Counted from the first letter of the stretch, positions 7,878 through 26,143 are shown. The stretch is DNA of 64,000 nt from Nitrospirota bacterium (GCA_016178585.1 JACOTA010000011.1:20341-84340), one strand, 5' to 3'. The notes: a model not told the origin generated them from the letters alone. Numbers and translations are program-made.

Positions 7878-8870
7878 TTATCGGTTGGAATTCATGTCTT
7901 TGTTGAAACTGAGGTCTTTGAGGACTGATTCTTCGCCCTGGATTATTTTTGAAAACTTAAACTGATCCTGAATGATCTGGGCGATCTCGCTTTCAAATTT
8001 CTTATCCCCTAAACCGCTTGAAAGAATTTCGCATTTCGCCACATGCCCGTCCGCGGCAATAATGATATTAACCTTCATCTTCCCTTTGAAATCTGGCCGG
8101 GTTTGAATGATTTTGTCATAAGTGGCTTTTAGGCGGCCTATGTAAGCATTAAAAGCCCGTTCAACGTCTTCAGGGGTTCTGGTGCTGCCGACCGGTCCGT
8201 TTCCGCCGCTTCCGTTTCCACCGCCCCCCCCGGAAAGGAGCTTGGTCTGATGTTCTCCGAGAGTGGCCTTTTTCCCTGTTTCCCCGCCCGGAATCCCTTT
8301 TAGAATTTGATCGATTCCTTGAAAATCGTTTGCGGAGATGCCGTCTGGATTTTCCTTCTTAACGAGAGCGGGGGCGCCTTTATTTGTAGTGATGACATTG
8401 GCCCCTTTGTTTCGAAGCACCTCTTCCGTTGTGTTTCCAAATACCGAGGCAAATTTATTTCTTGCGATCTCCTTGTTTTTTTCTAATTCCCTCGCCTGCT
8501 GGAGAGCCAACTGCGCCTGCCTCTTCCTTTCGATTTCTTCAGGCGATTCGGGAGGGGGCTGAGGTTTTTCTTTTGGTTGGATCATCGGCGGGGAGGATGG
8601 TTTTTTAGTTTTTTTAGGAACAATCGGGACAGGGAGAATCTTTTTAATTTCCGGCCGAACGGGAAGTGGTACGGGTTTTGCGGGAGGCGGAGGAATGGCC
8701 ATGATGATTTTCCGGGGAGTGGAATATTTGGGTGAGGCAGGGCGGAGATTTTCAATGGGAATTTCGTAAATAATAAAAACCAGTAGGGCGTAGAATAAAA
8801 AGGACCCGATCAGAAAAAGGTGAAACTCCCGCTCCCCCGCAGAGTAAGAGACGCTTTGGCGGGAATTCAA
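7878..8870 (-). CDS. tonB: energy transducer TonB
   Basis: 330 aa with an N-terminal TM anchor, a long Pro/Lys-rich spacer (PPPPAKPVPLPVRPEIKKILPVPIVPKKTKKPSSPP…) and a TonB-like C-terminal domain. It is the last gene of the exbB-exbD-exbD cluster. Confidence 0.8.
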   Translation of the reverse strand: MNSRQSVSYSAGEREFHLFLIGSFLFYALLVFIIYEIPIENLRPASPKYSTPRKIIMAIPPPPAKPVPLPVRPEIKKILPVPIVPKKTKKPSSPPMIQPKEKPQPPPESPEEIERKRQAQLALQQARELEKNKEIARNKFASVFGNTTEEVLRNKGANVITTNKGAPALVKKENPDGISANDFQGIDQILKGIPGGETGKKATLGEHQTKLLSGGGGGNGSGGNGPVGSTRTPEDVERAFNAYIGRLKATYDKIIQTRPDFKGKMKVNIIIAADGHVAKCEILSSGLGDKKFESEIAQIIQDQFKFSKIIQGEESVLKDLSFNKDMNSNR

Positions 8871-13624: not shown

Positions 13625-14730
13625 GGAGATTCGCTTGTCTTGCCCGGCTCGGATTTTTCAAGAACCATATTCCTGGCCATTGCGATAGAAGTTTGAACCG
13701 AAAGATTTTCCAAAACTTTTTTTTGCTGGTGCAGTTGCTCCTGGATGTATTTTTGGAAAAGAAGATGAATCTTATTTCTGATTTGCAAAAGGTTTTGGCG
13801 GTTTTCAGGCGAAATTCGTTTAAAGTCAGGGTCCTTCTGTTTTAGCCGGCCTTCCATTTTCAGAAAGAGAGATGCCCATTGCATCATCGGGAATCCCTGG
13901 ACATCTCTTTTCATATCAAGAAGGCTGTGCGCCCATTTCGTATCAGGTTGATTGAAAATGAATTCAAAATTAAACGGAATTGAGGAAGCCTGGGAGTTTA
14001 TGAGGTCTTTCTGATCTTGAATCTTTCGGGTATAAACGTGAAGCGCTTTTTGATAACTTTCTGCGGCATTTTTAAAAGCGAGAAGTTTAGAATAACAAAA
14101 TCCGATTCTAAACAAGCTTTCGGACGCGTACTCTCCGTTTGGAAATTCCGCGGTCAAATCTTCAAATAGAGCAATCGCTTTCACATATTCTTCCATTTCC
14201 ATAAAACTCCAGGCGATTCCGAATCGAGCCTTTTCTTTAAAATCGGTTTCATCTTCAATTAAAATAAATTCCTCCATGGCTTCTTTAGGGCGTTTTTGTT
14301 CTAAAAAGATATATCCCAGGGTCGCGTGAATTTCTTTTTTTAAAAGTTCCGGAGTCTTTTTGGAATCCACGAGGTTTTCTAACGTTTGGATGGCGGAATA
14401 ACCATCGCCGTTTCGGAAAAAGCTTAAACTGGTCTCATATTTCAGATAAGCCGGATCGGAGAGCATGGTCTGAAAAGGGGGTTCGTTTACGGCGGTTCTG
14501 TATCTTTCAATTTGAGCCCGGAATTCAGAAAAAATTTTGGAGGACGGGCCTGTTTCGTCCTGTTCTTCCTGAGCCTGAAGGGATGGGACGATCACTAAAA
14601 GGGAAAAGAGTAAAAAAAGAGGGAAAGCCTTCAATCGGTTAAATGGTCTCTGTTGTGGTTTAAAAGGGACAACGAATGATTTCAGCGTAGCGTAAAACAT
14701 CAAAAAAATCAATGAATAACGTGTTTGCAA
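13621..14730 (-). CDS. tetratricopeptide-repeat protein (secreted)
   Basis: 369 aa with a signal peptide followed by TPR-like repeats. Its start overlaps the next gene by 4 nt. Confidence 0.65.
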   Translation of the reverse strand: MQTRYSLIFLMFYATLKSFVVPFKPQQRPFNRLKAFPLFLLFSLLVIVPSLQAQEEQDETGPSSKIFSEFRAQIERYRTAVNEPPFQTMLSDPAYLKYETSLSFFRNGDGYSAIQTLENLVDSKKTPELLKKEIHATLGYIFLEQKRPKEAMEEFILIEDETDFKEKARFGIAWSFMEMEEYVKAIALFEDLTAEFPNGEYASESLFRIGFCYSKLLAFKNAAESYQKALHVYTRKIQDQKDLINSQASSIPFNFEFIFNQPDTKWAHSLLDMKRDVQGFPMMQWASLFLKMEGRLKQKDPDFKRISPENRQNLLQIRNKIHLLFQKYIQEQLHQQKKVLENLSVQTSIAMARNMVLEKSEPGKTSESP

Positions 14731-14783
14731 AAGCTGTTTTGTTTGGCATTGTATGTGTTTTATGGGTTTGCTATGATGTCCCT

Positions 14784-16157
14784 ATGCTGTCGGTTCAACA
14801 GTTGAGACAACTTGAGGGAATTCTTCCCAGGCCCTGGACTTCTTCAGAAAAAGAAGATTTGATCTGTTACGGTTTTGACGCAACCCGGATTGAGTCCATT
14901 CCGGATGTGTTGGTACGTCCGACTTCCGCGCAGGAAATTTCAAAAATTCTAATCTTTGCCAACCGGGAAAAGATTCCTGTTGTTCCCCGGGGAATGGGAA
15001 GCGGATTTAGCGGCGGGACGGTTCCAGTGAAAGGGGGAATTGTTCTTTCTCTGGAACGGATGAATCGAATCCTGACAATTGATGAAGACAATTTAATGGC
15101 GGTTGTGGAGCCGGGAGTGATCACTGGCGAATTACATCGGACCGTTCAAGCAAAAGGGCTTTATTATCCGCCCGATCCTACGAGTTCTGATTTCTGTACG
15201 ATCGGCGGGAACATTGCCGAGGCAGCGTCCGGTCCCCATTCTGTAAAGTATGGGGGGACACGTGACTATGTGCTGGGTCTTGAAATTGTTCTTCCGACAG
15301 GGGAAATGGTGCGGACCGGGGGAAAAACGGTAAAAAGGGCCGTTGCCTATGATCTGACCCGTTTAATGGTCGGGTCCGAGGGCACACTGGGGGTTGTGAC
15401 CCAGGCCAATTTAAAACTTCTGCCGTTTCCGGAGTATCGCCAGAGTCTTCTTGCGGTGTTCCCGAGCATTCAGGCCGCCGCCCGGTGCATTTCACACATT
15501 ATTCGTTCAAAATTCAGGCCCTCTGTCCTGGAATACATGGATGAAGCTTCTTTGAAAATTGTAGAAGCCCACAGCCGGTTTGGATTGCCAAAAGAGGCCA
15601 AATCGATCTTATTGATCGAAACCGACGGGTCTAAACGAACCGCTATGGATGAAGCGGAACAACTGACCGCGCTCTGCCGGGAAAACCATGCCATTTGGGT
15701 TGAAGTTGCTGAAGCGGAGGAGGATAAAAAGAAGATCTGGAAAGCCAGAAAAGCCTTATCTCAATCCCTATATCAATTAAAACCGGCAAAAATCAATGAA
15801 GATATCGTGGTTCCACGAAGTAAAATTGCTGAAATGGTTTGCGGATTAGACGGCCTGTCTGAAAAATACCGGTTGATCATCGTCAGCTTTGGGCATGCGG
15901 GGGAGGGCAACCTGCACGTGAATATCATGGCCGATCCAAAAAACAGAGATGAATGGGAAAAAGCTCAACAGGCCGTTAAAGAGGTTTTTGAGCTGACCCT
16001 CAAGCTGGGGGGGGCCTTATCCGGCGAGCATGGAATCGGGCTGACCAAAAGGCCTTATTTGTTCCTTGAAATGGGGCCGGCGGAGATTCAATTGCTAAGA
16101 AACATTAAAAAAGCCTTTGATCCGAACGGAATACTTAATCCGGGGAAAATCTTCTGA
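14784..16157 (+). CDS. FAD-binding oxidoreductase, glycolate oxidase GlcD / D-lactate dehydrogenase family
   Basis: The FAD-binding PCMH-type N-domain (…FANREKIPVVPRGMGSGFSGG…) and C-terminal (…GGALSGEHGIGLTKR…) match GlcD. The start is set at the ATG at 14784 (MLSVQQLRQLEGIL…), because the longer ORF from 14712 would overlap the divergent TPR gene. Confidence 0.8.
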   Translation: MLSVQQLRQLEGILPRPWTSSEKEDLICYGFDATRIESIPDVLVRPTSAQEISKILIFANREKIPVVPRGMGSGFSGGTVPVKGGIVLSLERMNRILTIDEDNLMAVVEPGVITGELHRTVQAKGLYYPPDPTSSDFCTIGGNIAEAASGPHSVKYGGTRDYVLGLEIVLPTGEMVRTGGKTVKRAVAYDLTRLMVGSEGTLGVVTQANLKLLPFPEYRQSLLAVFPSIQAAARCISHIIRSKFRPSVLEYMDEASLKIVEAHSRFGLPKEAKSILLIETDGSKRTAMDEAEQLTALCRENHAIWVEVAEAEEDKKKIWKARKALSQSLYQLKPAKINEDIVVPRSKIAEMVCGLDGLSEKYRLIIVSFGHAGEGNLHVNIMADPKNRDEWEKAQQAVKEVFELTLKLGGALSGEHGIGLTKRPYLFLEMGPAEIQLLRNIKKAFDPNGILNPGKIF

Positions 16158-16178: not shown

Positions 16179-16361
16179 ATGATCATGAAAGATCAAATCG
16201 AGATTTTAAGAGGACAACCGGTTGAAGTCATTTCCAATGGAATCCTTTATAAAGGAATACTCATGGGGGCTTCTGAGGAAAACCTTAGTCTGCAAACGCC
16301 TCTGCAATGGGTGGAGCTCCCGCTGGAGGACGTTTCATCGGTTCGGAAGAGCGGGTCATGA
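16179..16361 (+). CDS. small hypothetical protein (60 aa)
   Basis: Its stop TGA overlaps the ATG of the downstream M50 protease (ATGA), and its ATG is preceded by a purine-rich stretch. The coupling architecture supports a real gene. Confidence 0.4.
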   Translation: MIMKDQIEILRGQPVEVISNGILYKGILMGASEENLSLQTPLQWVELPLEDVSSVRKSGS

Positions 16362-17248
16362 TAAAAAGTCTAAAAAGTTTCCTCCCGGCCTCTGCGGTTG
16401 TTACCGAAAAGAAGAAAGAAAAGATAGGACTGCCACTTTTTCTTTTTGTCCTCACGATCATTACGACCTTATTCGCGGGAGCGTTTCTTGTCGGAGCAAA
16501 TCCTCTTCAGCATCCGTGGGACATGACCAGGGGGATTTCGTTTTCGTTTACGCTGATGCTCATTTTGTTATCCCATGAGCTGGGCCATTATCTCGCCGCC
16601 CGTTATTACGGGGTTGATGCGTCGCTCCCTTACTTTATACCGGCTCCGCCGTACCTTTTTTTGCTTGGCACCTTTGGAGCCTTTATTCGCATGCGTTCTC
16701 CGATTTTATATAAAAACGCCTTGTTTGATATCGCCGTAGCCGGCCCCATTGCCGGGTTTGTATTGTCCTGCGCGGCGCTCGCGGTCGGCATTCCTCTTTC
16801 GGAGGTGATCAACAGACCTCCGGAACCGCACGACCTTTCTATAGGGAGTTCTCCCATTTTTTATTTTTTTGTCAATCAGCTGATTGGGTCTCTTCCCCAG
16901 GGTTATGGTATCGATTTCCATCCGATTGCTTTTGCCGGATGGCTGGGGCTATTTGTCACCAGCCTCAACCTTCTTCCCATTGGGCAGTTGGACGGAGGAC
17001 ATCTGATTTACGCGTTAGCCGGAAGAAGACATCGGCTGATATCAATTTTGACGGTCATACTTTTAATAGTGATCGGATTTTTGGGGTGGCCGGGTTGGTG
17101 GATTTGGGGGCTTTTGGGAGCTTTTATCGGCCTGCGGCACCCCCCTCTTGCAGATCAGGAAATTCGGTTAAATAAGACCCGAATCTTTATAGGGTGGGCG
17201 TCGTTATTTATTTTTATCGGGACGTTTATTCCAGTGCCTTTTTCCTAA
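16358..17248 (+). CDS. site-2 protease family (M50) zinc metalloprotease
   Basis: HExxH motif (LSHELGHYLAARYYG) within a multi-TM protein, plus a downstream LDGG motif (…GQLDGGHLIYAL…). Confidence 0.8.
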   Translation: MIKSLKSFLPASAVVTEKKKEKIGLPLFLFVLTIITTLFAGAFLVGANPLQHPWDMTRGISFSFTLMLILLSHELGHYLAARYYGVDASLPYFIPAPPYLFLLGTFGAFIRMRSPILYKNALFDIAVAGPIAGFVLSCAALAVGIPLSEVINRPPEPHDLSIGSSPIFYFFVNQLIGSLPQGYGIDFHPIAFAGWLGLFVTSLNLLPIGQLDGGHLIYALAGRRHRLISILTVILLIVIGFLGWPGWWIWGLLGAFIGLRHPPLADQEIRLNKTRIFIGWASLFIFIGTFIPVPFS

Positions 17249-17389: not shown

Positions 17390-17415
17390 AAAGATATTAA
17401 TTGAAGGAGATGATT

Positions 17416-17778
17416 ATGTCTACAGCCGCGAGGCAAAGACTCACGCGTGTAAAAAAGTCCGATAACCCTTTGGTTGAAATCCGTCACCTGTTAAATCCTT
17501 CGGATGAAGAGCTTTCCCTTTTGTTGAATACCGGCATCCGAACCGTATACCGCTGGCTTGAAGATGGCCCTCCAGGTCAACATTACCCTTTGATTAAATT
17601 GGAGGAGCTGATCGACCTTGCCAAAAAGTCCCTGAAACCCGAAGCGATCGCAGAATGGTTCCACGAATCCAACCGGGCGTTGGGAGGCTCAATTCCAATA
17701 CGTCTTATCTTGGATCCTCACGGTTTTGATCTGGTCCGCCAGGAACTGGGGAATGCTGCATCCGGAATGCCGTTGTGA
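17416..17778 (+). CDS. Xre-like/DUF2384 antitoxin of RES-Xre toxin-antitoxin pair (MbcA/ParS-like)
   Basis: About 120 aa. An ATG at 17416 lies 6-7 nt after a GAAGGAG RBS, and the track ORF from the TTG at 17401 is in frame. The C-terminal region (…AIAEWFHESNRALGGSIPIRLI…GFDLVRQELG) matches the toxin-binding DUF2384 domain. The gene overlaps the downstream RES gene by 4 nt. Confidence 0.65.
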   Translation: MSTAARQRLTRVKKSDNPLVEIRHLLNPSDEELSLLLNTGIRTVYRWLEDGPPGQHYPLIKLEELIDLAKKSLKPEAIAEWFHESNRALGGSIPIRLILDPHGFDLVRQELGNAASGMPL

Positions 17779-18314
17779 CCCCTGAGCCGGACCAGCGGTT
17801 TTATTCCCAATTGAAAAATATTTCTCTTCGCTCTCTCACCGGAGTTTACTACCGCACTGTTCCGGAACAGGCAGCAGACTACATCCTTGAGGATGGCCCC
17901 TCCTATCTATTCAAAAACCGCTATAATATTTTTAACGAATTTGGCGCCCTTTACTTTGGCGACCGGGAAGAGGTGTGCAGAGCGACTTTTGAAAAACGGG
18001 GTCTCCTTTCCTCCCGCCGTCTCTCATTTGTTCTCGTCAGCTTTGATATAGAGGTAGACGGGCTCCTCGACCTAACAGATACTGATAACCTAAAGGTTTT
18101 AAAACTTCAGCGGGAGGATTTGGTTCAAACCCGGGAAAAACCAGCGGCTTACGATATTCCCCAGAGATTGGCAAAAGCGGCTTATCAGAGCGGCCGGATT
18201 CTGGGTCTTCATGTCCCCGACGCGTCTGAAACAGGAAATACCCTGGTCCTTTATCCTGGAAGAATTCTGTCTAAACAGATTGTCCGAGTTCGTGAAAAAG
18301 TTCTCTTAAAATAA
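17775..18314 (+). CDS. RES domain toxin (RES-Xre TA family, putative NAD+-targeting)
   Basis: 179 aa with the typical RES-family pattern (…YYRTVPEQAAD…NRYNIFNEFGALYFGDREEVCRATFEKRG…LVSFDIEV…). It is operonic with the upstream antitoxin. Confidence 0.6.
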   Translation: MTPEPDQRFYSQLKNISLRSLTGVYYRTVPEQAADYILEDGPSYLFKNRYNIFNEFGALYFGDREEVCRATFEKRGLLSSRRLSFVLVSFDIEVDGLLDLTDTDNLKVLKLQREDLVQTREKPAAYDIPQRLAKAAYQSGRILGLHVPDASETGNTLVLYPGRILSKQIVRVREKVLLK

Positions 18315-18568: not shown

Positions 18569-19708
18569 ATGAATTCAAAAATTAAGATTCTGATTTTTGG
18601 TTTATTTGTTTGTTTTCTTGTTGTTTTAACATCATATCTTTATCTTAATCATTCAAATAATCAAGTTATCTCCACCTTAGAAAAACCGGATCAGCCATTA
18701 AAAAATCCTCTCTTACCAGATCTTCAAGAACGCATTAAACCTGACATTGCCAAACAAGGGAAAAAAATCGAAATTGATGAAAAATCTCCCCTGCAACAAA
18801 AATCTGCCAGTCCAAAAAAACATCTTTTGAAAGGAATAAAAAAAACCGGGGATACTGATCATTTGTTTCAAAATAAGATATTTCCTTCACAGGAGGCCTT
18901 AATTGCGAACCCATCGTCTTCCGGAGAGGAAAGAGAAATTTATACAGTCGTTGCTCCATATGTGGCCCTTGATGGATATGAAATCATGAAAAAAACATTA
19001 AAAATTAAAAGACCCAGAGATGAGTCTACTACGGTTACATTTCGTCTCATTTTCAAAGAAAAAGATGAAAAGAGTATTGTTACCAAACGATATTGGAAAC
19101 AGTTTGATGAAAAAGATGACATCCAATCAAAAACTCTTATCTTAGTTGATGACGCTGGAAGTGCAGAGTTTAGATGGACTGTTTTAATGATGACCGCTTT
19201 TGTGGTCAATCCAGAGGATGAAATTTCTTGGATTCTTCCGTCTTTAAGGAAAAAGGAGCTTGAAATCACACATGCTAAGGATGGGAACTTTTTAGGTTCG
19301 GATTTTACTATTGAAGATTTATCAGACCAGAAACTTGGAGAAGGAGAACACCATTTCTTGAGACAAGAAGATTGCAGGAGTGGCGGTAGAGAAAAATGTT
19401 ACCTTGTGGAGACAATATTTAAAAAAGGGCCCTATAGTAAACAGATTCGTTGGATAAAGGAGCAAGATTTTACGACGACGAAAATCGAGCACTATGATCA
19501 AAAAGGGAATCTTTTTAAAACTCAGTACATAGATTGGCAAACAATAGACGACTATAAGGTATGGCTCAGTTCGGAAATGGTAAATAATCAAAACATGCAT
19601 AAAACAAAATATGATATTTCGTTTTTAAAAATAAATTCAAACTTAAAAGACAGCCTGTTTGATATAAAGTCATATACAACAAAAGGAAATTGGAAAAATT
19701 TGCCTTGA
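18569..19708 (+). CDS. LolA-like outer-membrane lipoprotein-sorting family protein (DUF/LolA_like), secreted
   Basis: 379 aa with an N-terminal signal/TM. The C-terminal region carries the hallmark GSDFTIEDL motif of LolA-like proteins. The coding sequence is very AT-rich (about 30% GC). Confidence 0.5.
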   Translation: MNSKIKILIFGLFVCFLVVLTSYLYLNHSNNQVISTLEKPDQPLKNPLLPDLQERIKPDIAKQGKKIEIDEKSPLQQKSASPKKHLLKGIKKTGDTDHLFQNKIFPSQEALIANPSSSGEEREIYTVVAPYVALDGYEIMKKTLKIKRPRDESTTVTFRLIFKEKDEKSIVTKRYWKQFDEKDDIQSKTLILVDDAGSAEFRWTVLMMTAFVVNPEDEISWILPSLRKKELEITHAKDGNFLGSDFTIEDLSDQKLGEGEHHFLRQEDCRSGGREKCYLVETIFKKGPYSKQIRWIKEQDFTTTKIEHYDQKGNLFKTQYIDWQTIDDYKVWLSSEMVNNQNMHKTKYDISFLKINSNLKDSLFDIKSYTTKGNWKNLP

Positions 19709-19963
19709 GTGGATTAAAAAATTTCCGACTTATAGGAAGAGGTTTTCTGATAACAATAGTTTTTGTAAAAATCAGAATAGGATTGTTCCTCCAAAAAATA
19801 GAAAGGTACTTCCTGAAACAGCCGTAACATCTATACCACGATACACTATTTCTACCGGCATTCAACAAAAAAGGTTATCCATTTTGTCAAGAATGACATT
19901 AAAGCGTTCAACGATTTCCGCTGGCATCAGCATTTCCATGGTTTTCTATCTTCGATTATAGAT

Positions 19964-19992
19964 TTGCAAAGTTTATGGTTATTCATTAATAT
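19964..19992 (+). promoter_or_regulatory. sigma70-like promoter candidate (TTGCAA-17 nt-TAATAT) reading into cassette array; followed by direct repeats CCAGATAC CAGATAC and core site GTTGGGC (20014-20020)
   Basis: TTGCAA at 19964-19969 and TAATAT at 19987-19992. A tandem CAGATAC x2 lies at 19993-20007, and the GTTRRRY-type core GTTGGGC at 20014-20020 sits exactly at the AT-to-GC composition jump. Confidence 0.35.
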
Positions 19993-20049
19993 CCAGATAC
20001 CAGATACTTAATTGTTGGGCTTGCTGTTTCATTGCAGTAGAGGTCTTTC

Positions 20050-20424
20050 ATGGCCAAGAAACCGAAGCGCGACCCAGAGCGCGAGGAGCGCATCATGATG
20101 GAGATCGTCGTCGATGCCTATGGCGCACAAGAAAGGGCGATGGGGTGGTACTACTATCTGGAAGACCAGCTCCAGTTTCCGTTCACGGCGATTTGCACTA
20201 CCAAGCGAGCTATTTCTCCTCTCCGCGTGAAAGATGAGGTCGAGGTCATCGGGACGTGCGGTGAGGATGAATGTGAACACGAGATATTTGTCACGATCCG
20301 CTGGGAGAAGGAGGGTCTGGCCGTGCCGTTAGCGCAGCTGAAGCCGATCAGCGAGACGGAAGAACGGACGAAGGAGGCGGTAGCAGATTGGCATTACTGG
20401 GTTCAGATGGGTTATGAGTTCTGA
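20050..20424 (+). CDS. CcbP-like acidic calcium-binding protein family (cassette gene)
   Basis: 124 aa, acidic (MAKKPKRDPEREERIMMEIVVDAYGAQERAMGWYYYLEDQLQFPF…EDECEHEIFVTIRWEKEGLAVPL…WHYWVQMGYEF). The family assignment is from memory of CcbP-like calcium-binding proteins. Confidence 0.5.
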   Translation: MAKKPKRDPEREERIMMEIVVDAYGAQERAMGWYYYLEDQLQFPFTAICTTKRAISPLRVKDEVEVIGTCGEDECEHEIFVTIRWEKEGLAVPLAQLKPISETEERTKEAVADWHYWVQMGYEF

Positions 20425-21003
20425 GAAAGGCGAGCCGATCGCATAAAGCCGTCGCATTTGAGGGGCATTATTTTGTGGCGGCTCACCCTAATCGTTGAGA
20501 CTGTAGAAATGCCTCCCCGCGAAAACTTTTGGAGAAACTTGAAACACGAGACTGCGTAGAATGCCCTATATTGAACGATCGGATACCTGGGAAGGGTTCT
20601 CTCAGACACCCTCCCTAAATCGATTGTATGGATGCTCCAAGTACTTCTTCTACGGGCTCGTTATGAAGTATTTTCTCGGTAATCATCAAATTTTATGGTC
20701 TCCATTTTCGATAAATCAAAGGTGGACACTCCGCCGAGAGCTGCTTCCTGAAGTCGAGTAATTGGGAACATTCTTATTCGTTGTAGATTTCAAGTGGAAA
20801 GCGGAAGATCTTATGCTGATCCGCATATGACGCCATCATAACAAGGTCTAATTGATGCAAGTAGCCGAGACTTAGGAGGTTATGAGAGTTGTATTATCCG
20901 AATCGCCCGTATATTATATGGATCGGGAACCGATGTTTCGCAGATTATGCGGATCAATCTAACCATAGTTAGGCGGCTTAACAACCGGCGGCGGAGGTAG
21001 CAG

Positions 21004-21405
21004 ATGGGACCTGATGAACGAGAAATCCGCGAGGTTCATTCGACCTGGATCAATGCCGTCAATGCCGGCGATCTGGTTCGCTTGCTCACGTTGATGGCGG
21101 ACGATGTCGTGTTCCTCAATCCGGGCCAAGCGCCGTTCGGCCGGGATGGATTCTCCGCCAACTTCTCGGCCGCGCACCAACAGGCTCGGATCCGTTGCAG
21201 CAGCGAGTTGGAAGAGGTCGTAGTCATCGGCGAAGTCGCGTACACTCGGAGCCGGGACGCGTTGTCGGTGACCCCGCGCGCAGGCGGGGAAGCGACGCAG
21301 CTCGCCGGTCATCGGATCACGGTATACCGCAAACAGCCCGACGGCCGCTGGCTCTTGTCCCGCGATGCCCATACGCTGTCCCCGGTTGAGGAATTGAGAT
21401 CGTAA
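21004..21405 (+). CDS. NTF2-like / SgcJ-EcaC (DUF4440) family protein (cassette gene)
   Basis: 133 aa (…IREVHSTWINAVNAGDLVRLLTLMADDVVFLNPGQAPFGRDGF…) with the typical SnoaL/DUF4440 N-terminal motif. It starts 30 nt after a GTTAGGC core. Confidence 0.65.
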   Translation: MGPDEREIREVHSTWINAVNAGDLVRLLTLMADDVVFLNPGQAPFGRDGFSANFSAAHQQARIRCSSELEEVVVIGEVAYTRSRDALSVTPRAGGEATQLAGHRITVYRKQPDGRWLLSRDAHTLSPVEELRS

Positions 21406-21437
21406 GAAAGGCGTTCTCGGCGGCATAAAGGTACGCC

Positions 21438-21497
21438 GCCTAACAATTCATTCAAGCCGACGCCGCTTCGCGGCGCGGCTTAATTCAGACGTTAGGC
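21438..21497 (+). repeat. integron attC site (59-be), aadA-type
   Basis: GCCTAACAATTCATTCAAGCCGACGCCGCTTCGCGGCGCGGCTTAATTCAGACGTTAGGC. It has an R'' inverse core GCCTAAC, a palindromic centre GCCGACGCCGC/GCGGCGCGGC and an R' core GTTAGGC. From memory it is near-identical to the aadA1 59-base element (…CTAACAATTCGTTCAAGCCGACGCCGCTTCGCGGCGCGGCTTAACTCAAGCGTTAGAT). Confidence 0.75.
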
Positions 21498-21504
21498 CTC
21501 GGGT

Positions 21505-22326
21505 ATGTCGCGCAATCGCATAACCATCCTCCATGACTCGTTCGGAAAGCGCGCCGACCTGACCAAGGATTGGGGTTTTGCCGCGCTGGTCGAGTTCGCC
21601 GGAAAGCGCATCTTGTTCGATACCGGCAACAATGCGCGGACCTTTGCTCAAAACACTGAGGCACTTGGCGTCGATCTGCGGAAACTTGACTTTGCGGCAA
21701 TCTCTCATCGACATGGCGACCACACAAGCGGGCTGAACCACCTGTTTAAGCTAAATCCCGGCATAACGGTGTATACGCCCGACGAGACGTACGGAGTTTT
21801 CGGTTCCAGTCTTCCCGGCATCTTCTATCCGCGCTGCCATTCGCTTCCGGCATATATGCAGTACTACGATGGTCAGCCGCCGGAAACTATTCGCCACGGG
21901 ACACCATGGCCGGAGGCCAAATTCGTCTGGGTCAAGGAGACGACTGAGATCGCCCAAGATGTCTGGCTAGTCGCGGTGGTTTCGGACATGCCGGGCACTC
22001 GCGAGATGCGTGAGCTGTCTCTGGCACTGCGGACACCTCGCGGATTGGTTCTAGTGGCGGGCTGCTCTCATCCAGGAATCGAGAATATTCTCGCAGCGTC
22101 GCGTGCGGTCTACGACCACCTCTACTGTATTTTCGGAGGCCTTCATCTAGTTTTGACAAAGGAGCCAGAAATTCGACGCATCGCAAATGCTCTACGCGAG
22201 CAATGGCGCGTGGATCAGATTGCGCCCGGACACTGCACCGGCGAGCCCGCATTCCTGGCACTAAGCGAAGCGTTCGGAGAAAGATACATATGCGCTGGTT
22301 TGGGAGACACAATTGATCTTCCCTGA
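21505..22326 (+). CDS. MBL-fold metallo-hydrolase (cassette gene)
   Basis: 273 aa with an HxHxDH motif (AISHRHGDHTSGLNHL) and downstream His/Asp ligands. The ATG lies 8 nt after the attC R' core. Confidence 0.75.
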   Translation: MSRNRITILHDSFGKRADLTKDWGFAALVEFAGKRILFDTGNNARTFAQNTEALGVDLRKLDFAAISHRHGDHTSGLNHLFKLNPGITVYTPDETYGVFGSSLPGIFYPRCHSLPAYMQYYDGQPPETIRHGTPWPEAKFVWVKETTEIAQDVWLVAVVSDMPGTREMRELSLALRTPRGLVLVAGCSHPGIENILAASRAVYDHLYCIFGGLHLVLTKEPEIRRIANALREQWRVDQIAPGHCTGEPAFLALSEAFGERYICAGLGDTIDLP

Positions 22327-22343
22327 CCCGACGACTTCACTAG

Positions 22344-22401
22344 GCCTAACCACGCTTTGCAGCCGACGCGCAAACGGCGCGGCTGAATGCGGACGTTATG
22401 C
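22344..22401 (+). repeat. integron attC site
   Basis: GCCTAACCACGCTTTGCAGCCGACGCGCAAACGGCGCGGCTGAATGCGGACGTTATGC. It has the same R''/centre/R' organisation as attC1, with a bulged imperfect palindrome. Confidence 0.65.
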
Positions 22402-22697
22402 ACCCTTTCTTTCCGAAATCCTTATATTCCCAGGATCTTCTTCCTTGAGGATTCGTAGGTGCTATCCTCAAAAGATACAGGTTTTTAGACACTAATATTT
22501 ATTTTTTATTTCGACATTTTTTAAAAGGGTTCCACCTAAGTTGTGGGGGAACAAACCAGAGACTCCTTCTGGCTACCGCGGCAGTATCGCCACTTTCTGG
22601 ACGGCCGTTGCAAACCCCGGCTTGAAGAGGACCCGCAGGTTATGGTGTCTTTATTACAAAGAGGGGGGTGAAAGAAGGGAATTTTAAACTATGAAGC

Positions 22698-23498
22698 CTA
22701 AGGTAAGGGTTGTTTTTTCGTTTGGATCGTCTGGAGCATCTGAACCATTGAGGCATGAATACGTCCGTTTGTTGCTAAAATATTTTTTGAATAAATAGAA
22801 TAAGGTTCCCCATTAAATCCGGTGAGTTTTCCCCCGGACTCTTCAACGAATAAACTTCCTGCGGCAACATCCCAGGGGGAGAGTTTCATTTCCCAGAAAC
22901 CGTCAAAATGACCGGCGGCAACGTAGCAGAGGTCTAAAGCGGCAGACCCTGTTCTTCTGACGGCCTGGGCCGAACGGCTAAAATGATAGAAATGGTCAAA
23001 GTTATTATCTGGACTTTCCCGAAAATCATATGAAAATCCGGTGACCAGGAGGGCCTGACCAAGTTCGGAATTTTCAGATACATGGAGGGGATTTCCGTTA
23101 AGGAATGCCCCTTTCCCTTTCTCACCGTAAAAAAGATCATTTCGGACAGGGTCATGAACGACTCCCGCAATGACCGACCCTTCAAACTCCAGAGCGATAG
23201 AAACCGCGAAAAAAGGAAATCCATGAATATAATTGGTGGTTCCATCCAGGGGGTCGATAATCCATTTGTAGGAAGAATCTTTTTGCTGAAGTCCTCCTTC
23301 TTCGGCCAGGACTTGATGCTTTGGATAATGTTCTTTGATAAGATCGGTAATCACCTTTTCAGAATCGACGTCGATATTGGAAACGACGTTGTGTTTTCCC
23401 TCCCCCTTGAAATTAACTCGAATTTGGGACGTCCCTCGAAGGAGGACTTCTCCGGCTAATCGTGCGGCTGCCATGGCGACATCTAAGAACGACTTCAT
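22698..23498 (-). CDS. suhB: inositol monophosphatase family protein
   Basis: 266 aa (…WIIDPLDGTTNYIHGFP…, …ALDLCYVAAGHFDGFWE…) with IMPase signature motifs. Confidence 0.85.
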   Translation of the reverse strand: MKSFLDVAMAAARLAGEVLLRGTSQIRVNFKGEGKHNVVSNIDVDSEKVITDLIKEHYPKHQVLAEEGGLQQKDSSYKWIIDPLDGTTNYIHGFPFFAVSIALEFEGSVIAGVVHDPVRNDLFYGEKGKGAFLNGNPLHVSENSELGQALLVTGFSYDFRESPDNNFDHFYHFSRSAQAVRRTGSAALDLCYVAAGHFDGFWEMKLSPWDVAAGSLFVEESGGKLTGFNGEPYSIYSKNILATNGRIHASMVQMLQTIQTKKQPLP

Positions 23499-26143
23499 CG
23501 GGATCTATTCTCTCTTTTTTCCAAAGACATCTTGAGATGGTGAATAAAATTTAAAGCCTCCAGAGGGGTTAGATTTAAAGGGTCGATTTTCTTTAATTGA
23601 TCAATAATTTGGTCGTGGGGGTCTTCCTGGTTTGAAAGAAATAAATCGACCTGGGTATCTTTTAAGGGAGATTCTTCCCCGGCGTGAGAATGGGAGATTT
23701 TAGGGAGACCGTTTGGGTCCAGCGTTTCCCCTTCCAGATTTTCTAAAACTTCTTTAGAGCGTTGAATGACCTCAGGGGGAATCCCGGCCAGCCGGGCAAC
23801 CTGAATTCCGTAACTTCGATCGGCGATTCCCGTAACAATTTTTCTCAGAAAGATAATTTCATCATTCCATTCTTTAACAGAGATATTGTAGTTTTGAACA
23901 TTGTTAAAAGAAAGGGCGAGGCCCGTGAGTTCGAGGTAATGTGTCGCAAAGAGGGTTCGAGTGTGGAGATTTTTCAGAATGTATTCAGCGATGGCCCAGG
24001 CGATGCTGATGCCGTCATAGGTGCTCGTTCCTCTCCCGATTTCATCCAGAATGATCAGACTTTTTGAGGTAGCGCTGGTTAAAATATTGGCTGCCTCCGT
24101 CATTTCGACCATAAAGGTGCTTTGTCCCTGGGTTAAATAGTCCGCCGCGCCAATTCGGGTGTACATCCGGTCGACCATTCCAATGGCACACTCCCTGGCT
24201 GGAACAAAGCTCCCCATTTGAGCCATGATAACGATTAAAGCGACCTGACGCATATACGTTGATTTTCCCGCCATGTTAGGACCGGTAATGATCATCATCT
24301 GGTTGTTTTCGCTCAGAAACGTATCATTCGGGACGAATTGTCCGGTTGGGAGGATTTTTTCAATGACGGGATGCCTTCCCTCGACAATTTTTAACCCGTT
24401 TTCCCACTTGATAACAGGCCGGACATAATGATTTTCCCTGGCAATTTCCGCAAACGTGTTCAGGAGGTCCAAAATGCTCAGCGTGTCGGCCATGGCCAGA
24501 ATCCTTGCCGATTCTACGGAGATTTGGCGCCTTATTTTTTCAAAAAGAGCCTGTTCCACCTCTTTAATCGATTTTTCGGCCTCATTAATTTTAATCTCAA
24601 ATTCCGATAATTCAGAAATAGTGTAACGTTCCGCATTCGTAAGCGTTTGTTTCCGTTGATAGTGAGCGGGGACACGATCGAGCTTTCCCTTTGGAATTTC
24701 AATATAGTAGCCAGCCACCTGGTTATACCGGATTTTTAAAGAGTCGATTCCAGTTTGCTCCTTTTCCCGAATTTCCAGAGAGGTGATAAAAGATTTCATA
24801 TTTCGGCCTAGCGATTTTAATTCATCTAATTCCGATGAATAGCCCTCTTTAAATAAAAAACCCTCTTTTGTTAAAAAAGGCGGCTCCTCAGAAATCGCTT
24901 CATCAATCAGACGATAGAGATCTTCGAGATTGTCCCACTTTTTCACAAGGTCTTCTATCAGGAGCGGGAGGGGGATTTGAAGGAGCTTTTGAATGGATTT
25001 TAAAGGGGGGAGGGAGGCTTTTAGCGCAAGAAAATCCCTTCCGTTACAGCCCTTCAAGGTGATTCGGCTCACGATTCTTTCAACATCATGGATAGACTTT
25101 AGTTCGCTTTTGATCCGTTGCGACGACTCGAAATGGGTATAAAAAAACTCCACGGCCTCGTATCTTCCTTCAATTTCTTCTTTGTGAATCAATGGTCGAG
25201 TCATCCATTTCTTTAAGAGCCGGCTTCCCATAGGGGTCTGGTTTTGGTCAAAAACCCACAATAAAGAATGCTCTCTTTTTCCGTCATAGGTGTTTTGGAA
25301 TAAGTCGAGGCTTTTGTGAGTGGAAGGGTCCATGACCATAAAGGTTTCAGATCGAATCCGTTTAAGCCGGATGACATGGTCTAAAGGGGATTTTATCATG
25401 TTCAGGAGGTAAGACAGAAGGGTTCCCGCGGCGCAAAGAGCGGTTTTTTGATTCTCACAATCGAATCCCGACAGGTCGGTAAGGTTAAAATGTTGAAGGA
25501 GGGTTGAATATGATTTTTCAAAAGCAAATGAATCGGCGGGGAGTCGATGAATCTTCCAATTCTGATTTATTTTGATCCATTGAAAGCCGGGATTGGAATC
25601 GGACTCTTCCGGCATCAGGATTTCTTTAGGGAGAAGCGCGTTAAGTTCCTTGCACAAATCCGAATCTGAGGATTCTTCTTTAAATTCAACGCAGTTAAAA
25701 TCTCCCGTGGAAATGTCGAGATACGCCAGGCCGATGATTCCCGCGTTAAAACAAACGCTGGCAAAATAATTGTTAGTCTGGCTTTCCAGAAGTTCGGATT
25801 CAATCAGGGTGGCTGGTGAAATGACCCTTACCACTTCTCTTTTAACAATTCCTTTGGCCAGGCGGGGATCCTCGATTTGCTCACACAAAGCGACCTGGAG
25901 CCCCGATTTAATGAGTTTGGCGAGATAATTGTTTAAAGCATGGAAGGGAATGCCGCAAAGGGGGACCGGGTTTTCTTTCGACTTATCTCTGGAGGTCAAC
26001 GCGATGTTTAAGATTTTTGACGCAGAAACCGCATCTTCAAAAAACATTTCGTAAAAATCGCCCACGCGAAACAGGAGAATCGCATCGGGATAATTTTTTT
26101 TTATCTCCAGGTATTGTCTCATCAGGGGCGTATTATCCATCAA
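23495..26143 (-). CDS. mutS: DNA mismatch repair protein MutS
   Basis: 882 aa with an N-terminal mismatch-binding domain (TPLMRQYLEIKKNYPDAILLFRVGDFYEMFFEDA) and a Walker A ITGPNMAGKSTYMRQ. Confidence 0.95.
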   Translation of the reverse strand: MMDNTPLMRQYLEIKKNYPDAILLFRVGDFYEMFFEDAVSASKILNIALTSRDKSKENPVPLCGIPFHALNNYLAKLIKSGLQVALCEQIEDPRLAKGIVKREVVRVISPATLIESELLESQTNNYFASVCFNAGIIGLAYLDISTGDFNCVEFKEESSDSDLCKELNALLPKEILMPEESDSNPGFQWIKINQNWKIHRLPADSFAFEKSYSTLLQHFNLTDLSGFDCENQKTALCAAGTLLSYLLNMIKSPLDHVIRLKRIRSETFMVMDPSTHKSLDLFQNTYDGKREHSLLWVFDQNQTPMGSRLLKKWMTRPLIHKEEIEGRYEAVEFFYTHFESSQRIKSELKSIHDVERIVSRITLKGCNGRDFLALKASLPPLKSIQKLLQIPLPLLIEDLVKKWDNLEDLYRLIDEAISEEPPFLTKEGFLFKEGYSSELDELKSLGRNMKSFITSLEIREKEQTGIDSLKIRYNQVAGYYIEIPKGKLDRVPAHYQRKQTLTNAERYTISELSEFEIKINEAEKSIKEVEQALFEKIRRQISVESARILAMADTLSILDLLNTFAEIARENHYVRPVIKWENGLKIVEGRHPVIEKILPTGQFVPNDTFLSENNQMMIITGPNMAGKSTYMRQVALIVIMAQMGSFVPARECAIGMVDRMYTRIGAADYLTQGQSTFMVEMTEAANILTSATSKSLIILDEIGRGTSTYDGISIAWAIAEYILKNLHTRTLFATHYLELTGLALSFNNVQNYNISVKEWNDEIIFLRKIVTGIADRSYGIQVARLAGIPPEVIQRSKEVLENLEGETLDPNGLPKISHSHAGEESPLKDTQVDLFLSNQEDPHDQIIDQLKKIDPLNLTPLEALNFIHHLKMSLEKRENRSR

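Follow-up and report, generated by a model that had tools for sequence, protein, structure and literature searches.

Clusters of attC sites lacking an integron integrase (CALINs; defined in PMC4889954) are about as frequent in genomes as complete integrons, and two of them were reported earlier in the phylum Nitrospirota, in Ca. Nitrospira inopinata (PMC9024848). Small CALINs are well represented: 1362 of 2961 consist of exactly two cassettes, and cassette insertion into genomic GWT attG sites, shown for IntI1, IntI2 and IntI3, was proposed by Loot et al. as their source (10.1101/2022.09.11.507474). Here, we analysed a 64,000-nucleotide stretch from a Nitrospirota bacterium (GCA_016178585.1, JACOTA010000011.1:20341-84340; hereafter the window, in whose positions all coordinates are given). 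It holds a two-cassette CALIN, with two complete cassettes arranged head to tail at 20969-22395. An earlier inspection of the DNA by itself (the sequence-only reading) had proposed an integrase-less, CALIN-like cassette array at this place; that proposal was borne out by the scores of both attC sites (63.1 and 49.1 bits), by the recurrence of the cassettes with the same attC sites and G|TT boundaries, and by the absence of intI from the 64 kb.

Two attC sites and two circulating cassettes

An attC site combines an inverse core R'' (RYYYAAC) and a core R' (GTTRRRY) with an L''/L' stem and unpaired bases on one arm, over about 57-141 nt. Both attC1 and attC2 (Table 1) showed this architecture: inverse cores R''/R' with GCCTAAC on one side and GTTAGGC or GTTATGC on the other, an L''/L' stem, bulges only on the 5' arm (alignment columns 16 and 23), and a length of 58-60 nt; the cores, the bulged palindrome and the length agree with the sequence-only reading. 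Both folded as imperfect hairpins, with a DNA fold z-score of -5.3 for attC1 and of only -1.8 for attC2. The crossover points were G21491|T21492 in attC1 and G22395|T22396 in attC2.

The sites were scored with a covariance model, R1, derived from 20 aligned attC sites, none of them from the window; three came from R721 and 17 from metagenomic arrays reached via homologues of the cassette proteins. The R''/R' and L''/L' structure of R1 was backed by covariation, with 90.5% of cells paired, a value matched by 0 of 500 shuffles, and sliding 3' partners reached at most 46%. R1, which is distinct from attc_4.cm of IntegronFinder, was run over the window with filters off. The sequence-only reading had staked its proposal on an attC model recognising 21438-21497 and 22344-22401, and R1 scored both. 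All other matches in the 64 kb had E ≥ 0.09; the best of them was attC1 in reverse, and the next best at a new site had E 1.1. The model also recovered many untrained attC sites in other arrays and none in control loci. The score of attC1 was 63.1 bits on the plus strand versus 16.6 bits on the minus strand, and the unpaired bases on the R''/L'' arm identify the minus strand as its recombinogenic bottom strand. A heuristic R''/R' hairpin scan returned extra weak hairpins in coding regions at 8505 and 47506, which were unsupported by the covariance model and were discarded. Judged by their sequence, the two intervals are bona fide attC sites.

The two sites were direct repeats of one another (repeat families D3/D4), identical at 45/60 positions. 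In a BLAST search, attC1 matched more than 5000 plasmid records, the best being the sat2 attC of Tn7-type class 2 integrons (85% over about 80 nt, E 2e-17). It was identical at 55/60 positions to the sat2 attC, at 53/60 to the aadA1 attC (R721 array read directly) and at 57/60 to the attC of a cassette in the metagenome contig L042. The aadA1 and sat2 sites are experimentally active, and by analogy with them, at 53-55/60 identity, attC1 is likely to be active in recombination. No significant match to attC2 was found in plasmids (best E 0.2, to a Desulforapulum plasmid); its identity to the attC sites downstream of the orthologous MBL cassettes of contigs L034 and L038 was 51/59 and 50/58, respectively.

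Each site closes a cassette. For the NTF2-like protein of cassette 1, about 2950 homologues reached E ≤ 1e-20, and identity was 86-100% among the best 120; homologues occurred in Acidobacteria, Myxococcota and other metagenome-assembled genomes (MAGs), with Byssovorax among the labels. At the DNA level, the cassette was 96.0% identical over 531 nt to L042, an unrelated 145-kb ENA metagenome contig, from 20968 to 21498, i.e. from core to core. There, it sits inside an array of more than 20 cassettes whose attC sites form a homogeneous 76-nt family, yet retains its own 60-nt aadA-type attC. At L042:654-15130, we counted at least 20 attC sites, mostly of the 76-nt family, together with several toxin-antitoxin cassettes, the NTF2 cassette being embedded among them as a "foreign" aadA-type unit. 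The L042 array looks like a sedentary chromosomal integron with its integrase outside the stretch examined. In an Acidobacteria MAG (L043:6761-7340), an NTF2-like open reading frame (ORF) with 89.7% DNA identity to window 20987-21497 was followed by a different, 99-nt attC. One NTF2-like gene family thus occurs with two attC types, the 99-nt and the 60-nt aadA-type, which points to attC exchange or independent cassette genesis.

The metallo-β-lactamase (MBL)-fold protein of cassette 2 had counterparts of 84-85% identity in arrays L034 and L038, where the attC belongs to the same family and the start is likewise G|TTAGGCCTCG..ATG. The cassette had different neighbours in each of the three arrays, and its DNA homology to L038 stopped at GTT. 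Directly upstream of it in L034 (8644-9898) lies an IS3-family element (HTH_Tnp_1 + rve); it appears to have cut short the preceding attC, the 3' half of which alone remains. Both cassette ORFs were intact and full-length relative to their homologues, and for both products the closest structures were structural-genomics entries, those of the MBL-fold protein being the uncharacterised MBL-fold proteins 7dck, 3h3e and 2p4z. The MBL-fold protein also had a weak precomputed match to PF23023 (Anti-Pycsar Apyc1), and its JGI homologues are named dihydropterin-related synthase; neither assignment is supported beyond the generic MBL-fold. No intI was found within the examined flanks of arrays L034, L038, L042, L043 and L097. 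Both genes thus form ORF-attC units that are bounded at G|TT and recur with different neighbours, and sequence comparison marks them as true mobile cassettes circulating in arrays of unrelated organisms.

The search for an integrase covered the 64-kb window and the called genes 10 kb either side. The best tblastn hit of IntI1 over the window had E 0.44; the query was validated by recovering the R721 intI2 (46% identity, E 1e-80) and a Xer-like recombinase in an unrelated locus. Every IntI-sized ORF in the window had another Pfam assignment, and PF00589 was absent from the called genes within 10 kb either side. The sequence-only reading had found no tyrosine recombinase at 17.4-23 kb, and this holds for the entire 64 kb, where no intI pseudogene or relic was detected either. 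A 36-aa tblastn match at 20854-20961 (E 2.2) was rejected as an intI relic because of its wrong orientation and lack of Pfam support. Of the three components of a complete integron (intI, attI and Pc by the first cassette), intI was absent. Two attC sites on the same (plus) strand, 847 bp apart, with no integrase place the block within the published CALIN definition (PMC4889954).

The arrangement was reproduced in independent per-run assemblies of seven SRA runs, with both junctions at 99.9-100% identity. Contig L009 spanned 19134-22349, contigs L002-L005 ran from attC or the MBL gene into the inositol monophosphatase (IMPase) and MutS genes, and contigs L052-L054 from RES to the NTF2 or MBL gene; wherever a contig encoded the exact IMPase or CcbP protein, the arrangement was the same. 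An assembly chimera or contamination, with foreign cassette DNA misjoined into a Nitrospirae MAG contig, might be suspected from the MAG source, from cassettes of 57-62% GC in a 46% GC contig and from attC repeats, which are known to confuse assemblers, but the independent Logan assemblies across both junctions make it scarcely credible.

Several of the per-run Logan contigs ended inside attC sites, at 21438 (L010), 21459 (L002, L003, L007 and L008) and 22349 (L009). This suggests, only as a hint, that attC k-mers recur elsewhere in the same metagenomes, as other cassettes or array variants. The breaks would also suit an array split off from a larger integron, with intI and more cassettes now elsewhere and parted from it by rearrangement, and the scope of the integrase search leaves room for intI elsewhere in the MAG. 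Nevertheless, there are housekeeping genes on both sides, no further attC and no recombinase within about 21 kb to the left or 41 kb to the right, no insertion sequence (IS) or transposase nearby, and the same arrangement in seven samples. We consider such a split improbable, and the suggestion that the block is the distal end of a larger chromosomal integron was not upheld.

Table 1. Features of the cassette array and its surroundings, in positions of the window.
Feature	Position	Strand	Remarks
Left junction of array	20957-20974	+	AATCTAAC-CATA-G|TTAGGC; crossover G20968|T20969
Cassette 1	20969-21491	+	523 nt, 61.6% GC; NTF2-like ORF and attC1
NTF2-like SgcJ/EcaC/DUF4440/SnoaL ORF	21004-21405	+	133 aa, GGAGG upstream; Pfam and NCBIfam matches
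attC1	21438-21497	+	60 nt, aadA/sat2 type; R'' GCCTAAC, R' GTTAGGC; covariance model 63.1 bits, E 4.6e-13
Cassette 2	21492-22395	+	904 nt, 57.0% GC; MBL-fold ORF and attC2
MBL-fold metallo-hydrolase ORF	21505-22326	+	273 aa; Pfam match
attC2	22344-22401	+	58 nt; R'' GCCTAAC, R' GTTATGC; covariance model 49.1 bits, E 1.2e-9
Spacer	20463-20968	.	506 bp, host-like 43.9% GC; no ORF with homologues, attC or RNA family
CcbP gene with AT-rich leader	19967-20462	+	neighbouring acquired module, excluded from the array
CcbP-like ORF	20050-20424	+	PF11535, E 3e-40; 55.7% GC
LolA-like / TP_0789-like outer-membrane lipoprotein-sorting gene	18569-19708		33.8% GC
Xre/RES toxin-antitoxin pair	17401-18314		adjoins M50 peptidase gene on its right; left edge of acquired mosaic
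M50 peptidase	16307-17248		left of block; housekeeping
GlcD	14712-16157		left of block; housekeeping
Inositol monophosphatase (IMPase)	22698-23498	-	right of block; housekeeping
MutS	23495-26143	-	right of block; housekeeping

The left junction and the proposed insertion

The homology of the NTF2 cassette to L042 started exactly at 20968, which defines the left cassette end. The core at 20968-20974 had been taken as probably part of a truncated attC; it does mark this end to the base, but 20957-20974 scored only 11.3 bits with R1 (E 1.6), so that the model did not recognise an attC here. Four bases upstream of the crossover, TCTAAC is inverted relative to the cassette-borne GTTAGG, in an attI-like L/R layout. 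Possible readings of the interval are a target of the attI-like or secondary-site (attG) type and what is left of a collapsed attC.

Removal of the cassettes in silico left ...ATCTAACCATAG | TTATGCACCC..., i.e. CCATAG|TTATGC, with G|TT at the crossover; the reconstructed empty-site junction is spelled CAATCTAACCATAG|TTATGCACCCTTTC, and the reconstructed target contains a partial inverted repeat, TAAC-N4-GTTA. The GC content of the flanks was host-like, 43.9% on the left (the spacer) and 43.4% on the right, against 57-62% in the cassettes; attC2 is the last site of the array, and the GC content is down to 43% past it. We also observed that the TTATGC after the right crossover (22396-22401) occurs at 20944-20949, 19-24 nt upstream of the left crossover. 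This recurrence may be due to chance or a trace of earlier recombination at the site.

The best overall explanation, with a probability of roughly 0.9, is a two-cassette CALIN inserted at a G|TT secondary site of the genome by an integrase acting in trans, the insertion being the inferred part. In this scenario, an integron integrase encoded at another place in the genome, or brought in by a transient mobile integron, would have carried out recombination between the folded bottom strand of a cassette attC and a 5'-G|TT-3' attG (GWT) site in the genome, the target ...ATCTAACCATAG|TTATGCACCC... lying in host intergenic DNA downstream of the IMPase gene. The cassettes may have entered as one two-cassette circle or successively, and the TAAC-N4-GTTA repeat may have aided integrase binding. 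The G|TT junction and the host-like GC content of the flanks are as expected from the insertion of a cassette circle at a GWT attG site. Lacking intI, attI and Pc, the cassettes would now be sedentary, and any expression would depend on read-through or fortuitous upstream promoters; counts of sigma-70 promoters and terminators in the block were not above those in shuffled sequence. As neither attC site is damaged, an integrase that re-entered the cell could still excise the cassettes. The cumulative GC skew climbs across the window, which weakly suggests that the plus strand is the leading strand. If so, the recombinogenic attC bottom strands would sit on the leading-strand template, the orientation reported to be stable in sedentary arrays.

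Several points weigh against this explanation. Neither an empty site nor a cassette-free relative was found in the searched collections, so the insertion event is deduced and was not observed. The nearest IMPase relatives reached only 51% identity among GTDB genomes and 58-60% among JGI metagenomes, none of them syntenic, and a 22-mer of the left flank was absent from JGI metagenomes. As the integrase search covered the window and nearby genes, intI could reside elsewhere in the genome. In the flanking 5 kb, acquired DNA forms a mosaic (RES/Xre, the 34% GC LolA-like gene and CcbP), which makes "host intergenic DNA" an assumption. The attC call rests on our own model R1 and not on attc_4 of IntegronFinder. 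Finally, the inverted TCTAAC at the left junction may just as well be what remains of R'' in a collapsed attC, which would favour a decayed array.

In the case of such decay, the block would be the remnant of a once-complete integron, whose intI, attI and other cassettes were deleted or eroded, with the spacer as an eroded platform or dead cassette and ATCTAAC-CATA-G as an attC that lost its centre by hairpin slippage. The R''-like ATCTAAC lies 4 nt from the core within 20957-20974, and a toxin-antitoxin module, of a kind common in chromosomal arrays, is located 2.6 kb to the left; moreover, degraded integrons were the origin first proposed for CALINs (PMC4889954). Nevertheless, tblastn, six-frame Pfam and protein searches revealed no integrase relic, the GC content of the spacer is host-like, and the spacer had no informative homologue among 1.84 billion proteins. 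In addition, the base at -2 from the left crossover is A, nearly always C in the attC alignment, and only 5% of CALINs have an intI pseudogene close by (PMC4889954). We regard decay as rather unlikely.

A further interpretation of the same bases is that the left junction, ATCTAAC-CATA-G|TT, is a proto-site resembling attI that occurs naturally in the host DNA and is distinct from both a random GWT and a dead attC, i.e. a host inverted repeat that caught two cassettes via a transient integrase. This is a speculative idea, to which we give little credence. If true, it would offer a snapshot of how a locus for cassette acquisition starts out in a phylum with hardly any known integrons, and would link the aadA1/sat2 attC lineage of clinical integrons directly with the cassette pool of the environment.

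The CcbP gene, the spacer and the wider locus

The sequence-only reading was right that three small co-oriented genes, CcbP-like, NTF2/DUF4440-like and MBL-fold, lie here on the plus strand; the abrupt GC block of about 60% in which it placed them applies to the two cassettes (61.6% and 57.0%), but not to the CcbP ORF (55.7%), which is parted from them by the 506-bp spacer of 43.9% GC. The array has two cassettes, not the three counted earlier. An array of three cassettes, beginning at GTTGGGC (20014) and taking in CcbP, could draw on the co-orientation of this gene with the cassettes, its GC content above that of the host, the great abundance of CcbP homologues on short metagenomic contigs, and a homologue in contig L049 with GCGTTAGGCC 40 nt upstream of its start. 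However, positions 1-494 of JGI contig L048 were 92.5% identical to window 19967-20462 over 496 nt, including 83 nt upstream of the ATG. This homology passes straight across 20014, where L048 reads TTAATTTGGGC opposite GTTGGGC and has no GTT, and the motif GTTRRRY was no more frequent in the window than chance predicts (98 occurrences, 105 expected). The GC step at 20014, proposed earlier as a core-site junction, is therefore the transition from leader to coding sequence within one conserved unit. The covariance model found no attC after the CcbP gene in the window, L048 or L049. An array of three cassettes is thus very improbable; with neither an attC behind it nor a core-site boundary, the CcbP gene is, on its sequence, not demonstrably integron-derived, and the same holds for the spacer.

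The sequence-only reading had called the three genes promoter-less; the conserved, AT-rich CcbP leader contains a weak promoter-like TTGCAA-17-TAATAT below the scan threshold. In L048, the genes downstream of CcbP are unrelated to those of the window, and the homology ends 38 nt past the stop codon, within a hairpin. We found no attC, IS or recombinase with the CcbP module that would indicate the route by which it moved.

Comparison of the spacer, at the DNA level and by tblastx, with the other arrays and loci examined and with the rest of the window revealed no similarity, which speaks against a decayed cassette, and there was no Pfam match in six frames and no Rfam family. An 82-aa reverse frame had a sole match in 1.84 billion proteins (E 2.6e-4), which was rejected as a repeat-translation artefact. 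Its probable origin is host intergenic DNA formerly continuous with 22396-22697.

The window derives from a groundwater MAG; with a mean GC content of 45.9%, it was 99.98% identical to contig JACPZL010000031.1 of GCA_016195515.1, whose proteins are labelled "Nitrospirae bacterium" at NCBI. Between the M50 peptidase and IMPase genes lies a 5.4-kb mosaic consisting of the Xre/RES pair, the LolA-like gene, the CcbP-like gene, the 506-bp stretch and the NTF2-like and MBL-fold genes. The Xre/MbcA/ParS-type antitoxin (PF09722) and the RES-domain toxin (PF08808) overlap by 4 nt as a type II toxin-antitoxin pair. The LolA-like gene is probably a separate horizontal acquisition; the 341 bp on its 3' side have 34.6% GC, and no attC or mobility gene was found beside it. 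In 19700-22750, there was no Rfam match at E ≤ 1 and no tRNA.

Comparison with known systems

Like the CALINs described so far (PMC4889954, PMC9024848), the element has two attC sites on the same strand, no intI within 4 or 10 kb and non-resistance cassettes of uncharacterised function, and, like 95% of CALINs, it has no recognisable intI pseudogene. It is of minimum size, with two sites, and its host is an uncultured, deep-branching Nitrospirae MAG without a close sequenced relative; we saw no essential difference. The element is a real, ordinary, textbook small CALIN of a well-known kind.

In terms of the insertions into attG sites, the single attC sites lacking an integrase (SALIN) and the small CALINs studied by Loot et al., the crossover 5'-G|TT-3' fits the GWT consensus, lies outside an integron platform in intergenic DNA, and yields the modal two-cassette class. 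In contrast to their insertions, the event in the window is read from its junctions alone, and the extra TAAC-N4-GTTA repeat is not part of the published consensus.

Compared with the sedentary chromosomal arrays, such as L042 and the superintegrons of Vibrio and Xanthomonas, the window has two attC sites of unlike sequence and lacks both an integrase and an attC family specific to its host, although the NTF2 cassette with the same attC occurs in the L042 array. The locus thus adds one more well-documented minimal integrase-less cassette cluster in uncultured Nitrospirae, with both junctions resolved to the base. It supports the existing views that small CALINs may arise by cassette insertion outside integrons and that clinical and environmental cassettes share an attC pool, and it opens no new question.

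Among known elements, attC1 is closest to those of aadA1 and sat2, i.e. to the 60-nt "59-base elements" found in class 1 and 2 mobile integrons (Tn21, Tn7), which it resembles at 53-55/60 positions, with the same length, R''/L''/L'/R' layout and bulge positions. Unlike them, it is attached to an NTF2-like gene and not to a resistance gene, on an environmental chromosome with no integrase nearby. A cassette whose attC is almost identical to these clinical sites thus circulates in environmental Acidobacteria, Myxococcota and Nitrospirae, and the one mildly notable point of the locus is this near-identity, combined with how widely that cassette is spread in the environment.

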